Origin: an uncultured Bacilli bacterium
GTDB taxonomy: Bacteria; Bacillota_I; Bacilli_A; RF39; UBA660
Assembly: GCA_947632325.1 (NCBI GenBank)
Contig: CANROU010000001.1
Location: 7,997-71,996, forward strand
Reading direction: 5' to 3'
Length of the DNA stretch: 64,000 nt
Under the pieces are notes generated by a model that made no database searches, had not been told where the DNA came from, and saw only the letters and a program-made list of their open reading frames with translations. Of this stretch, positions 5,444-14,279 are shown piece by piece. The position numbers and the translations under genes are program-made. Within the stretch, counting starts at the first letter, position 1, and the number at the start of each line of letters is the position of its first letter.

Positions 5444-5782
5444 TTATAACATTTCTATATCTACCATTTCACCTTTTTCTCTTACTGATGTAGCGGTAAA
5501 CATATCATTATTACGATTTAAAAATTGTTCTCTCATAGCATCAAAATTCTTGTAAAATTCTTCTTCTTCAGCATCAATGTATCCACGAAAATAAATATTA
5601 GCAATTTGACTATGATTAAATAGCAACTGTGTATCCGGAGAAATATATCCTTCAGGAAAAATGACTCCTATATAATCATAAACCTGTTTATCTTCGACCT
5701 GTGGCATGTAGCCGATAACCATAATTTTCTTACTTGCTTCGCTTAAAAGTACTACTGATCCAATAGGTAATAATTTTTCCAT
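5444..5782 (-). CDS. DUF4176-like small protein (putative T7SS/LXG secretion accessory factor), paralog 1
   Basis: N-terminal motif MEKLLPIGSVVLL...KIMVIGY is shared with ORFs 9010..9393 and 13929..14279. All three sit at the 3' end of toxin modules. Confidence 0.5.
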   Translation of the reverse strand: MEKLLPIGSVVLLSEASKKIMVIGYMPQVEDKQVYDYIGVIFPEGYISPDTQLLFNHSQIANIYFRGYIDAEEEEFYKNFDAMREQFLNRNNDMFTATSVREKGEMVDIEML

Positions 5783-5786
5783 ATAA

Positions 5787-7559
5787 TCACTCTCCTATAC
5801 CTTCTATATATTTATCTGGCTTAAAAAATTGAGACTCCCAAAATCCCCAATCACCCCAGAAAGTTCCCATGTTATTATCATAATCGACAAATTTAGTACA
5901 TTTACCACTTTCATCGTAAAAAGAAATAGTACCAGTTGAAAAATTATCTGGAGTACTAATGCTCTTCATGTGATACACAGACTTGTTATTTGAAGAAGAT
6001 CCTTTATAAAACTCTTTATCGCTGATAAGGTGATCTTGACCATTTTCGTCGGTGCAATAATATTCAAATTTAGCACCACGTACAGTGTAGTAAGTACCAT
6101 CATCATTATAACGATAATACTCAACATCTTCACTATTTTCACCATCAGAAGTATAAGATGTAACTACGCTTAAACGTCCTTGTAAATCATATTGATAATT
6201 TGTTTGTTTAATAAGGCTACCAACATCAAGATTACAACCTTTTGGAGATGTATATGTCCCTATTTTTTGTCCCTGAGCATTATATTCGTAAAAATATCTT
6301 CTCTCCAGGTCATACAAGTAATAACTCCCATCATCACGATAGTAAGTTATATCACCAGTAACTAAATTCTTTTTATAATAACTATATTGGCCCTCTTTAC
6401 CTTCACGAATAATCATTTCACCTACTAAAGGATCATAAGTCATACTCGGACTTTTTTGTTCATAGTCACGTTGCTTATATTCAATAATTTTTCCAGATGT
6501 ATCGATATGCAAATCATATTTAGTGATATTACCAATAGCATCAATTATCATGATTGGTTTATCGCTATAGCCTTCATTGTAACCGGTAATCGTACCATCA
6601 GGTGAAAATACAAAATGATTAGCGCCTAAAATTTTAGACCCATTCATAAGTTGTTGTCCACCATAGTTACTAGTCCATCGTTCTTTAATTGAACCATCCT
6701 GATTATATAAAGTAGCAATTGTACGGTCATCATTAAAATTTAGTTTCCCATTTTCATCACAATAAACATTTCCTTCAATATAAGATCCGTCTGGATATAG
6801 AATATATTCTACACACAACAACGTCCCCCCCTCCGTATATTGAGACGTCTGTAATAAAGTTCCATCATTATATTTAATTGCTACTTGCCTACCATTCCAA
6901 AAATAGAGTGTCCCCTCATCTGTAGTAGTCATTTTATCGTAGAAAATTTCTTCATTGCCAAATTGAATTGTTTGATTACTTTTATCTGATTTTTTAAAGC
7001 GATTAGAGATGGCACCGCAAAGACGAGCCCACCAACCCTCTTTCTGGGAGTTAGCATCATCTGTTTTTGCCTTTTTAAACCATCCCGAAACAGTTTCCCG
7101 GAGCTTATCCCACCAACTTTCCGTCTTTTCATTGGCTACTGTAGCTCCTGTTGCTTCTAATTGTATTTCTAATGGCATTGGCCCTATAAAGTTAGGATCA
7201 CCTGGCTTTGCTACTGTTGTATTTGATACATTTGTTTCCGTCATGGACGTAGAATCTAAAGTTGATAAACCATTTAAACTACTTAATTGTTGATTTAATA
7301 ATGCTTCACTCTCTTTATATTTATTTCTTACTGTGTCTAAAGTATAATATATATCTTGACATCCGTTTTTTATGGTCTCCATATCAGAAACCAATGTACC
7401 AAAGTCATTCCTTATATTATTACGATTTAATACATCATTATCGGTATTCCTTCTTATTCCTTCTACGATATTTATAACACCATCAAGGTCTCCTGGAATG
7501 CCCATGTATCTACCTTTGATTATTTCCATTGTTTGAACATCTATTGTGTTAGCAGCCAT
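5787..7559 (-). CDS. T7SS polymorphic-toxin family protein: LXG-like N-terminal domain + YD-repeat region (LXG1)
   Basis: The N-terminal ~130 aa are homologous to ORFs 10069..13761 and 14823..17165 (MAxNTIDxQTMEIIKxRYMGIPGDLDG...). The C-terminal half is rich in YD-type repeats (YQYDLQGRL, YYRDDGSYY). Confidence 0.5.
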   Translation of the reverse strand: MAANTIDVQTMEIIKGRYMGIPGDLDGVINIVEGIRRNTDNDVLNRNNIRNDFGTLVSDMETIKNGCQDIYYTLDTVRNKYKESEALLNQQLSSLNGLSTLDSTSMTETNVSNTTVAKPGDPNFIGPMPLEIQLEATGATVANEKTESWWDKLRETVSGWFKKAKTDDANSQKEGWWARLCGAISNRFKKSDKSNQTIQFGNEEIFYDKMTTTDEGTLYFWNGRQVAIKYNDGTLLQTSQYTEGGTLLCVEYILYPDGSYIEGNVYCDENGKLNFNDDRTIATLYNQDGSIKERWTSNYGGQQLMNGSKILGANHFVFSPDGTITGYNEGYSDKPIMIIDAIGNITKYDLHIDTSGKIIEYKQRDYEQKSPSMTYDPLVGEMIIREGKEGQYSYYKKNLVTGDITYYRDDGSYYLYDLERRYFYEYNAQGQKIGTYTSPKGCNLDVGSLIKQTNYQYDLQGRLSVVTSYTSDGENSEDVEYYRYNDDGTYYTVRGAKFEYYCTDENGQDHLISDKEFYKGSSSNNKSVYHMKSISTPDNFSTGTISFYDESGKCTKFVDYDNNMGTFWGDWGFWESQFFKPDKYIEGIGE

Positions 7560-7575
7560 AACTTCATCTCCTTAT

Positions 7576-8034
7576 TTAGGGAATATTTATTACTTGTCCT
7601 ACCCTTATAACGTTAACATTTTTAATATTATTATATTGCGCTAATTCTTGAACCGATTTTCCATAACGTTTAGCAATTTGACCTAATGTGTCGCCAGAGC
7701 GTACAGTGTAGCTTGAACGGGAACTAGATTGTTGTTGTTGAGCCTGTCTTTGTCTTTCTTCTTCAATTCTTCTAGCCTCTGCTTCTTCAGCAGCAATTTG
7801 ATTAGCGGCTTGGCGCATATTATTACCAAGGTTACTGCATTCTCCAATAATTTTATCAATCATAGAAACATATTTATCAATAGCATTTAAAACTTGAGTT
7901 GAGGCGGCATCACTCCAATTGCTTATTAATTCTTGCTTACCATCGCTTAAAGCGCCCTTAATTTCTCTCAAGCTCTCTATGCATTGATTGAATTTAGCTG
8001 CTTGAGTATCCACATTTCCTACATTAATTGCCAT
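7576..8034 (-). CDS. WXG100-like helical hairpin protein fused to a C-terminal LysM peptidoglycan-binding domain
   Basis: N-terminal helix-turn-helix with an ISNWSDAAS turn, a Q/E/R-rich linker, and a C-terminal LysM ([17 protein letters not shown]...[17 protein letters not shown]). The start is placed at the ATG at 8034-8032, 8 nt after a GGAGG. The track ORF started at an upstream TTG inside the RBS. Confidence 0.5.
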
Positions 8035-8049
8035 ACTAACCTCCAAATT

Positions 8050-8088
8050 ATAATTATATTACGACAAGAAATCTTGTCGTAATATAAT
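8050..8088. promoter_or_regulatory. perfect 16-bp inverted repeat (stem-loop / palindromic operator) between the WXG gene and the LysM-WXG gene
   Basis: ATTATATTACGACAAG-aaat-CTTGTCGTAATATAAT. It lies 16 nt upstream of the 7576..8034 start. Confidence 0.5.
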
Positions 8089-13761: not shown

Positions 13762-13812
13762 AACATCTACTCCTTATTATACACCATTATATAATAACCC
13801 CCCCCCCTTGTC
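13376..13812. repeat. direct repeat copy 1 (LXG N-terminal coding region + 5'UTR + promoter)
   Basis: 13376-13777 is identical to 16780-17181. Similarity continues with 2 mismatches and a 1-nt homopolymer length difference through the promoter. Confidence 0.85.
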
Positions 13813-13850
13813 AACTTTTTGTTACCTTTTTCGATGTATTATAAAGAGCT
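13771..13850 (-). promoter_or_regulatory. promoter of LXG2 operon: TTGACA-A-G10-TTATTA-TATAAT (17-nt spacer containing the G tract)
   Basis: Read directly on the coding strand. The C10 run at 13798-13807 lies between the -35 and -10 hexamers. The 5'UTR that follows carries AAGGAG. Confidence 0.55.
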
Positions 13851-13862
13851 ATTTAATACTAT

Positions 13863-13900
13863 TTACATTAAAAAAATTTTTGAGTTTATTTTATCTCAAA
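13863..13900. terminator. AT-rich palindrome (AAAAATTTTTGAG-N10-CTCAAAAATTTTT), probably a bidirectional terminator closing the LXG3 module
   Basis: 13-bp perfect inverted repeat flanked by A/T runs. It sits between the DUF4176-3 stop and the LXG2 promoter. Confidence 0.45.
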
Positions 13901-13928
13901 AATTTTTTTATATTAATCAATTATTATT

Positions 13929-14279
13929 TTATAATTCTTCAACTTCATCTTGAAGTTTGCTGTCACTACTCTTTTTTGGCAAAATATCAGCTAGTTGTTG
14001 CGCTTTTTCTATTACTTCTTTCAATTGTTTATGATATTCAATTCCCTCGTCATCTTCATAACCCTTATAAAATACTTTATCAATTTGGTCATGATTAAAT
14101 AAGCATACTTGACTAGAAGATATAGAACCTTCTGGATACAAACAACCACAATAATCATAAACTTTATTAGTATCATTTCCAGATACAACATAAAATCCTG
14201 TTATCATTACCCGTTTACTAGCTCCTTTTAATATTACTACAGTTCCAATTGGTAAAAACTTCTCGCTAATTTCATTCAT
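13929..14279 (-). CDS. DUF4176-like small protein, paralog 3
   Basis: MNEISEKFLPIGTVVILKGASKRVMITGFYVV... Confidence 0.5.
   Translation of the reverse strand: MNEISEKFLPIGTVVILKGASKRVMITGFYVVSGNDTNKVYDYCGCLYPEGSISSSQVCLFNHDQIDKVFYKGYEDDEGIEYHKQLKEVIEKAQQLADILPKKSSDSKLQDEVEEL

Follow-up and report, generated by a model that had tools for sequence, protein, structure and literature searches.

A 64,000-nucleotide (nt) stretch of DNA from an uncultured Bacilli bacterium (GTDB lineage RF39; UBA660; contig CANROU010000001.1, positions 7,997 to 71,996), hereafter the window, carries three genes for DUF4176 proteins, which we call DUF-112, DUF-127 and DUF-116 after their lengths in amino acids (aa). 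They lie beside three large toxin-like genes (toxins 1, 2 and 3) and genes of a type VII secretion system of the T7SSb type, and the question raised by this locus is which protein each DUF4176 serves. Based on our findings, we consider it probable that each of them is a chaperone that is co-expressed with the toxin encoded just upstream and serves that toxin. A cognate chaperone-like role, which an earlier note on this DNA had suggested from the sequence, is credible by analogy, as it has been shown experimentally for the family in streptococci: in Streptococcus intermedius, where DUF4176 proteins are toxin-specific chaperones termed Ltc (Gkragkopoulou et al. 2025, PMC12478183), and in S. suis (Wu et al. 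2025, PMC12482557). The chaperone role was therefore already established for the family in 2025; what is new here is a set of members from an unstudied, uncultured lineage of gut Bacilli. Where our analysis goes beyond the literature, we infer that the small DUF4176 proteins that trail their toxins in this lineage track the middle domain of the toxin.

Family membership and transcription units

All three genes were found where the earlier note had placed them, on the minus strand (Table 1), and the N-terminal signature that it had described is real: the paralogs share LPIG[ST]VV.L....SK..M[VI][IT]G. The note had named a failure of the family assignment in a profile hidden Markov model (HMM) search as what would refute its proposal. 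In that search the three proteins matched PF13780 (DUF4176) with 100.2, 95.9 and 94.7 bits against a gathering cut-off of 25 bits, over 71-74 of the 74 model positions; chance is excluded as the source of these matches. The PF13780 domain begins at residue 4-8 in each protein, and all three fall in the small size class without an N-lobe, which PMC12478183 sets at 70-130 aa. A profile built from the three paralogs matched the crystal structure of the small DUF4176 protein MQE10_09270 (9dcs_A) with an E value of 1.7e-12, and the large forms 9dct, 9mno and 9dcr weakly (E 0.08-0.44). Judged by homology, the three open reading frames (ORFs) are small-type DUF4176 proteins of the Ltc/Lcp family. Their pairwise identities are 39%, 43% and 48%. 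An acidic patch follows the core in each of them (DAEEEEF, DEEEQKF and DDEGIEY). The acidic C-terminal half that had been ascribed to all three holds for the 112- and 116-aa paralogs, whose net charge after residue 60 is -6 and -7, and barely for DUF-127, where it is -1. A fourth DUF4176 gene was looked for within the window and none was found.

The locus is transcribed from high to low coordinates. The gene for toxin 1 (780 aa) is followed by ORFs of 93 and 96 aa and by DUF-116; after a gap of 167 nt come toxin 2 (1230 aa), a 224-aa ORF and DUF-127; and after a further gap of 285 nt come two WXG100 genes (106 and 96 aa), a WXG100-LysM fusion, toxin 3 (590 aa), DUF-112, EssC and a YukD-like protein. 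A promoter element of 46-98 nt, with the sequence ...GTCGAAAAAGGTAACAAAAAGTTGACA-[A/T]-G9/10-...TATAAT, occurs in three copies, before toxin 1, before toxin 2 and before the first WXG100 gene, and two of these copies are perfect sigma-70 consensus promoters (12/12). The three copies divide the locus into three apparent units. A DUF4176 gene is the last gene of units 1 and 2, and in unit 3 it closes the toxin part, with essC following. The start of DUF-116 overlaps the stop of the 96-aa ORF by 4 nt, DUF-127 overlaps the 224-aa ORF by 8 nt, and DUF-112 begins 4 nt past toxin 3. A terminator-like hairpin lies just after DUF-116 and another downstream of DUF-127; none of 200 shuffled sequences was as stable in either case (0/200 for each).

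The same order is found in three relatives that encode the same toxin head (L101-L103). In L103, two WXG100 genes and a WXG100-LysM gene precede a 660-aa toxin (P0004), which is followed by a DUF4176 gene and then by a 507-aa protein with the same head; the adjacency of toxin 3 and its DUF4176 gene thus recurs there. In L101 and L102, two WXG100 genes precede a 1045-aa ADP-ribosyltransferase toxin (P0005), a 64-aa ORF, an ADP-ribosylglycohydrolase, a kinase-like protein, a 117-aa ORF, a DUF4176 gene, a LysM protein, a second DUF4176 gene and EssC. The WXG100 proteins of L101 and L103 are 85-89% identical to those of the window (87-89% for the 106-aa protein), and the closest relatives of DUF-112 are 49% (L103, ending in DIEVL) and 48% (L101, ending in DIEIL) identical to it. 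The order toxin-(immunity)-DUF4176 is therefore conserved in independent relatives. Together with the overlaps and the 4-nt gap, the hairpins and the repeated promoter, this supports the one-per-toxin arrangement that had been claimed. Two parts of the layout described in the earlier note stand with restrictions. All three DUF4176 genes close a toxin module, but DUF-112 is not the end of its transcription unit, as essC follows after 19 nt; and the sequence of toxin, immunity gene and DUF4176 is present in modules 1 and 2, where the immunity candidates are candidates by position, but not in module 3, which has no such candidate.

Toxin domains and what the DUF4176 core and tail may follow

The three toxins begin with a shared head. 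Toxins 1 and 2 are 100% identical over 129 aa, toxin 3 is 70% identical to them, and the similarity among the three extends into the linker to about residue 145. An AlphaFold2 (AF2) model of the head is a helix-turn-helix (H8-38, H41-96) with a predicted local distance difference test (pLDDT) score of 85, and hhalign aligned the head with the WXG100 proteins of the locus at a probability of 85% (E 6e-6), collinear over 95 columns. Foldseek placed EsxA and EsxB among the top matches of the model with non-significant E values, helical hairpins being too generic to indicate membership. The toxins had been taken for LXG effectors in the earlier note, a description that did not hold up: Pfam LXG (PF04740) had no match in the full proteins at E<=0.01 or in the heads at E<=10, and NCBIfam gave none either. 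Sequence and model together support a head that is WXG100-like rather than LXG, in the sense that it would work like a WXG100 protein, with no claim of family membership. The head is rare: an HMMER scan of 1.84 billion representative proteins yielded about five other clusters. After the head, the linker carries the motif GDxNF[IV]GP[LM]PL[DE]xQLExTGA, which is also present in P0004 and P0005.

Behind the linker, toxin 2 has a hydrophobic segment M1 and a segment M2 (Table 1). Strongly hydrophobic stretches, scored as 19-mers, lie at residues 175-204 and 264-291 of toxin 2 and at 194-212 of toxin 1, and the middle region of toxin 1 is homologous to toxins of related loci. Relatives that share the head or the middle domain carry ADPrib_exo_Tox (P0005 and L072) or, in others, HD-CE domains, so the predicted polymorphic-toxin nature of the window proteins is supported by these relatives.

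The DUF4176 alignment was used to scan GTDB genomes and returned 80 loci (L001-L080), nearly all labelled as metagenome-assembled genomes of uncultured gut Bacilli, 'Tenericutes' or Mollicutes. Among 98 DUF4176 genes counted (96 in these loci and two from the window), 40 have a large ORF only upstream, 11 have one on both sides and 14 have none, counts that are approximate, since some ten housekeeping genes were counted as 'large ORFs'. Trailing DUF4176 proteins are longer than leading ones (median 120.5 versus 97 aa, p 4e-5, for sequences that are not independent of one another), and the sizes of the three window proteins fall in the trailing range. Pfam LXG was found in none of the 83 large neighbours of these genes (first 250 aa checked). 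Many of the 83 share a hydrophobic, Gly/Trp-rich middle domain with the core LGASIANGVISxVKGLVxLVEAIGD...TGNWxF.

What the chaperone follows is clearest for the DUF-127 type. In 11 loci its core is 75-93% identical to that of DUF-127, and all 11 genes trail a large toxin. Nine of these toxins share M1 of toxin 2 (about residues 157-430) at 37-68% identity, and four also match M2. The toxins of L046 and L013 are 65-69% identical to toxin 2 over residues 157-557 and 71-80% over 635-892; that of L051, which is cut by the start of its contig, matches M2 only (77%). Ten of the 11 partner toxins have no similarity to the C-terminal 250 aa of toxin 2, and jackhmmer searches started from the window heads found no match in their heads. 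Homology between the window head and the heads of the related M1-type toxins was also considered and rejected, as hhalign gave a probability of 0.5%, that is, the two are unrelated by sequence. Because M1 is shared while heads and C-terminal domains differ, the DUF-127-type core appears to travel with the hydrophobic middle domain, independently of the head that targets the toxin and of the toxin domain. This suggests that the DUF-127 type likewise tracks the middle domain, as LtcA and LtcB do. EssC in these loci is 49-54% identical to that of the window. Word-index protein searches with the toxin head and with residues 131-430 and 150-300 of toxin 2 came back empty even though homologues exist, and we draw no inference from them.

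The C-terminal tail behaves differently from the core. All window paralogs end in E-x-L-COOH (DIEML in DUF-112, TELL, and EVEEL in DUF-116). The codons of this motif lie at 5444-5460, 9010-9025 and 13929-13945, at the end of a tail that is variable and mostly acidic. The relatives at L101:9870-10214, L101:10916-11227 and L103:6849-7154 end, as a set, in DIEIL, DIEVL and SEYL. [DE]xL falls in the final 7 residues of 22 out of 59 long-tailed DUF4176 proteins from the related loci; shuffled tails gave 4.8 +/- 2.1, and the proteins are not independent of one another. DUF-127-type proteins of the lineage with another toxin head end in FDENGxVV despite their 75-93% core identity, which suggests that the end of the tail matches the local secretion system. 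The proposal that specificity is set by the variable region found no backing in these data: the core appears to track the middle domain of the toxin, and the tail seems to track the local secretion system. A more speculative possibility, which we regard as doubtful, is that trailing DUF4176 proteins are two-part adaptors, whose core would read the middle domain while the motif at the end of the disordered acidic tail would dock the complex on EssC or on a WXG100-type targeting complex. If true, this would explain how cassettes of middle domain, toxin, immunity protein and chaperone move between lineages with unrelated heads, and the tail would offer a handle on the hand-over step of Ltc chaperones.

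Proposed mechanism and competing explanations

We propose the following scheme, which draws on published work on the family. A DUF4176 dimer would bind hydrophobic or amphipathic helices after the head of its cognate toxin; the binding region would be the hydrophobic M1 in toxins 1 and 2 and W-rich amphipathic helices at about residues 145-190 in toxin 3. The bound toxin would be kept stable and secretion-competent in the cytoplasm of the producer, and the chaperone would stay behind as the toxin exits via EssC. Recognition of the WXG100-like head that all three toxins have probably involves the WXG100 partners that they also share (the 106-aa and 96-aa proteins and WXG100-LysM). All three toxins would then be targeted in the same way, while each would have a chaperone of its own.

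Several observations weigh against this scheme. Toxins 1-3 show no known toxin domain in relaxed Pfam, NCBIfam and PDB sequence searches, and no immunity candidate lies between toxin 3 and DUF-112. The AF2 model of DUF-112, built from a 3-sequence alignment, has five strands and a helix (71-94) at low confidence (mean pLDDT 54.5). Identity correlations are confounded by phylogeny, as EssC, too, is closest in the loci where the DUF-127 homologues are closest. In L101, one relative of DUF-112 has no adjacent toxin (LysM protein-DUF4176-EssC), and because of this gene the DUF-112 type may be less strictly bound to a toxin and a more general component. M1-type toxins occur with both gene orders, and DUF-116 sits between two M1-type toxins, so that synteny is ambiguous there; we assign it to toxin 1 because of the transcription-unit evidence. 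Finally, 28 of the 98 DUF4176 genes lie directly upstream of a large ORF, about as common an arrangement as trailing (40).

That last point raises the possibility that each DUF4176 serves the toxin downstream of it, DUF-116 serving toxin 2 and DUF-127 toxin 3, with toxin 1 left without a chaperone and DUF-112 left over or general. The 28 leading genes have a median gap of about 21 nt to the large ORF, typically in the order of three WXG100 genes, WXG100-LysM, a DUF4176 of 91-100 aa and the toxin; M1-type toxins lie downstream of DUF4176 in L006, L011, L014, L067, L070, L072 and others; the 507-aa protein with the same head in L103 starts 21 nt after DUF4176; and the genes for the large LtcA and LtcB are upstream of telA and telB (PMC12478183). 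In the window, however, DUF-116 and DUF-127 overlap the gene upstream, whereas the next toxin is reached only across gaps of 167 and 285 nt that hold a terminator-like hairpin and a consensus promoter. The close homologues of DUF-127 all trail M1-type toxins, but toxin 3 downstream of it has no M1; DUF-112 is followed by essC and not by a toxin; and the sizes and tails of the window proteins fit the trailing class. We therefore regard service to the downstream toxin as quite unlikely.

The paralogs could also be shared, non-cognate chaperones, interchangeable or partly redundant, that bind the common head or linker motif, with a copy number that scales with the toxin load. Such sharing would fit the toxin heads, whose first 130 residues are 70-100% identical and which stay similar to about residue 145, the linker motif that recurs in P0004 and P0005, the common DUF4176 core and E-x-L end, and the DUF-112-like gene without a toxin in L101. 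It is nevertheless unlikely, given that cognate specificity has been shown for LtcA and LtcB and for three S. suis DUF4176 groups, that the paralogs are only 39-48% identical, and that the DUF-127 type pairs with toxins that have a different head and no linker motif but do have M1. The location of the DUF4176 genes among immunity candidates, a published survey that puts small DUF4176 most often beside immunity genes (PMC12478183) and the binding of S. suis DUF4176 to toxin domains in two-hybrid assays (PMC12482557) would allow an immunity-type or other non-chaperone accessory role, such as neutralising the toxin domain. Published deletions, however, destabilise the toxin and cause no self-intoxication, and the toxin domain of the partner changes across loci in which the DUF-127 core keeps 75-93% identity, which would be unexpected for an immunity protein; we think such a role very improbable.

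We thus return, as the probable reading, to chaperones that each serve the toxin just upstream. A second idea, which concerns the reach of the family and is as speculative as that of the adaptors, is that toxins with a WXG100 head which escape the Pfam LXG model, and are invisible to LXG-based surveys, may be routine clients of small DUF4176 proteins. In annotation, a DUF4176 gene can serve to show where a toxin cassette ends; it flags large unannotated neighbours as T7SS toxins even where neither an LXG nor a toxin domain can be detected, toxins that surveys based on LXG annotation would miss. The core that tracks the middle domain, the tail motif, the rare head and the G-tract promoters could refine models of how toxins are handed over to the T7SS and how cassettes are exchanged.

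Surrounding genes and comparison with known systems

The features of the locus are collected in Table 1. By its gene content (EssC, a YukD-like protein and three WXG100 genes), the locus is a T7SSb locus; EssB, EsaA and EssA would fall beyond the start of the window. Homologues of the YukD-like protein adjoin EssC in 35 related loci. Upstream of toxin 1 lie housekeeping genes, an M23 peptidase and FtsX/FtsE.

Table 1. Features of the DUF4176 toxin locus in order of transcription (positions are those of the window)
Feature	Position	Strand	Remarks
Promoter copy 1, heads module 1	17190..17240	-	TTGACA-16-TATAAT, G9 in spacer; 12/12; repeat family D4
Toxin-like protein 1, 780 aa	14823..17165	-	WXG100-like head, hydrophobic middle domain, C-terminal domain without family match
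93-aa ORF, immunity candidate of module 1	14573..14854	-	Position only
96-aa ORF (93 aa from later start), immunity candidate of module 1	14276..14566	-	Position only; sub-threshold DUF7070 match
DUF-116	13929..14279	-	116 aa; PF13780 E 3.5e-27, 94.7 bits; last gene of toxin module 1
A/U-rich 16-bp hairpin and U-run just after DUF-116, terminator-like	13869..13910	-	Minimum free energy (MFE) -16.4 kcal/mol, z -4.06
Promoter copy 2, heads module 2, in 167-nt gap after DUF-116	13786..13837	-	TTGACA-17-TATAAT, G10; 12/12; repeat families D3, D4
Toxin-like protein 2, 1230 aa	10069..13761	-	Head 1-~100, linker, hydrophobic M1 ~157-430, M2 ~431-900, C-terminal domain without family match
224-aa ORF, immunity candidate of module 2	9386..10060	-	Position; weak homologues elsewhere
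DUF-127	9010..9393	-	127 aa; PF13780 E 1.5e-27; last gene of toxin module 2
Hairpin then UUUUU downstream of DUF-127, terminator-like, just before promoter copy 3	8821..8857	-	MFE -20.1 kcal/mol, z -3.76
Promoter copy 3, heads WXG100-toxin 3-DUF4176-essC unit, in 285-nt gap after DUF-127	8769..8814	-	G9, longer spacer; repeat families D3, D4
WXG100 protein, 106 aa, first gene of unit 3	8404..8724	-	PF06013 E 1.9e-9
WXG100/EsxA-like protein, 96 aa	8099..8389	-	PF06013 E 1.6e-14
WXG100-LysM fusion, 156 aa, directly upstream of toxin 3	7576..8046	-	LysM E 3.8e-17, WXG100 E 2.7e-8
Toxin-like protein 3, 590 aa	5787..7559	-	Head 70% identical, W-rich amphipathic helices, YD-repeat-like C-terminal region
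DUF-112	5444..5782	-	112 aa; PF13780 E 6.8e-29; directly after toxin 3, before essC
EssC, T7SSb ATPase, 1531 aa	829..5424	-	FtsK_SpoIIIE E 7.6e-45; weak FHA match
YukD/EsaB-like ubiquitin-fold protein, 84 aa	571..825	-	PF08817 E 0.0019, below cut-off
Shared 100-aa toxin head	13462-13761, 16866-17165, 7260-7559	-	N-terminal domain of toxin 2, toxin 1 and toxin 3

The 106-aa WXG100 protein scored 44.4 bits against TIGR03930, slightly under the cut-off of 44.85 bits, and the 96-aa protein 94.9 bits (E 2.5e-27) against NF035934 ESAT6_2, whose cut-off is 100 bits. The C-terminal LysM domain of the WXG100-LysM fusion would bind peptidoglycan. In many related T7SS loci of gut Bacilli such a fusion again directly precedes the DUF4176 or toxin gene (L005, L006, L011, L014, L016, L019, L059, L067, L069, L070 and L072, with further copies at L101:10307-10735 and L103:4410-4841), and a literature search by title and abstract gave no paper on a fusion of this kind. 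In L101, the WXG100 genes of the T7SS toxin unit are closely preceded, at 2769-3539, by a gene for a metallo-beta-lactamase fold that matches the Anti-Pycsar Apyc1 family.

None of the immunity candidates (93, 96 and 224 aa) matched a Pfam family above threshold. The 93-aa ORF is also present on metagenome contigs with the gene order kept, and large toxins in L023, L001, L006, L059, L010 and other loci are closely followed by weak homologues of the 224-aa ORF (24-34% identity). A Shiga-toxin-B match in the window toxins was below threshold and was set aside. Toxin 3 scored 16.3 bits overall against YD_repeat_2x, marginally above the cut-off of 15.8 (E 0.011) with no single stretch passing. The C-terminal region is YD-repeat-like in both toxin 3 and its relative P0004 (L103:4854-6836), and in neither case does an immunity candidate precede DUF4176; the two may not be antibacterial toxins at all.

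The three promoters have a G9/G10 homopolymer in the spacer between -35 and -10, in a genome of about 29% GC. The tract of the toxin 2 promoter reads G10 both in the window and on two metagenome contigs but G9 in a third sample (L088), which shortens the spacer from 17 to 16 nt; the comparison was made at L088:994, L087:2719 and L090:543, in low-coverage assemblies. The change in tract length could reflect slipped-strand phase variation of toxin-module expression. The promoter, 5' untranslated region and first 129 codons of toxins 1 and 2 are identical over about 400 nt (13351-13837 versus 16755-17240), and this identity is a recombination substrate for cassette shuffling. A presence/absence polymorphism of module 1 was considered, since L081 joins the M23 peptidase gene directly to toxin 2 and skips toxin 1, the 93- and 96-aa ORFs and DUF-116. 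The junction falls inside the repeat of about 400 nt, and the low-coverage contig L097 from the same sample has the module-1 genes, so a collapse of the short-read assembly across the repeat is the most likely explanation, and L081 was given no weight as evidence.

Among characterised systems, the DUF4176 genes of S. suis offer the closest parallel. They lie downstream of LXG toxin and immunity genes and fall into eight groups that correspond one-to-one to the C-terminal (CT) types of the toxins; the proteins bind the pre-toxin/middle and toxin regions in a cognate-specific manner, and only the cognate protein restores toxin level and competitiveness (PMC12482557). The S. suis DUF4176^CT 'TID' (toxin-immunity-DUF4176) modules resemble the window in having a small DUF4176 gene downstream of a T7SSb toxin and its immunity gene, one type per toxin and several modules per locus. 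They differ in their toxins, which match Pfam LXG and are preceded by Lap1/Lap2 (DUF3130/DUF3958) genes, whereas the window, from an uncultured low-GC lineage of gut Bacilli, has rare 100-aa WXG100-like heads, WXG100 and WXG100-LysM partners and one partner set for three toxins. In the window and the 80 related loci, small DUF4176 genes commonly adjoin large toxin-like genes without a Pfam LXG match.

In S. intermedius GC1825, MQE10_09270 (PDB 9DCS) is the closest solved structure by sequence. It belongs to the same size class, its gene likewise follows an immunity gene (tipD), and it is needed for the stability of TelD (PMC12478183), but the window proteins have longer tails that end in E-x-L. 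That study conjectured that small forms bind helices of the toxin domain, where our data suggest a middle domain for the small trailing forms of this lineage, and it found that the large LtcA and LtcB bind an amphipathic helix in the disordered middle domain of the toxin (PMC12478183). LtcA and LtcB (PDB 9DCR, 9DCT, 9MNO) and LcpE/Gallo_0561 are alike in the toxin-specific binding of such a helix by the DUF4176 C-lobe; further literature on these chaperones comprises a preprint on TelE/LcpE and a 2026 review. Unlike the window proteins, which have no N-lobe and are encoded downstream of the toxin, the large Ltc proteins (200-250 aa) possess an additional N-lobe, and their genes lie upstream of the toxin gene, after the lap genes. 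In role, the DUF4176 proteins also recall EspG of the mycobacterial T7SSa, a comparison made in the S. intermedius study (PMC12478183): EspG is a cytosolic chaperone that is specific to a substrate class, keeps its substrates soluble and is itself not secreted, although its fold and family are unrelated and its substrates are PE/PPE proteins.

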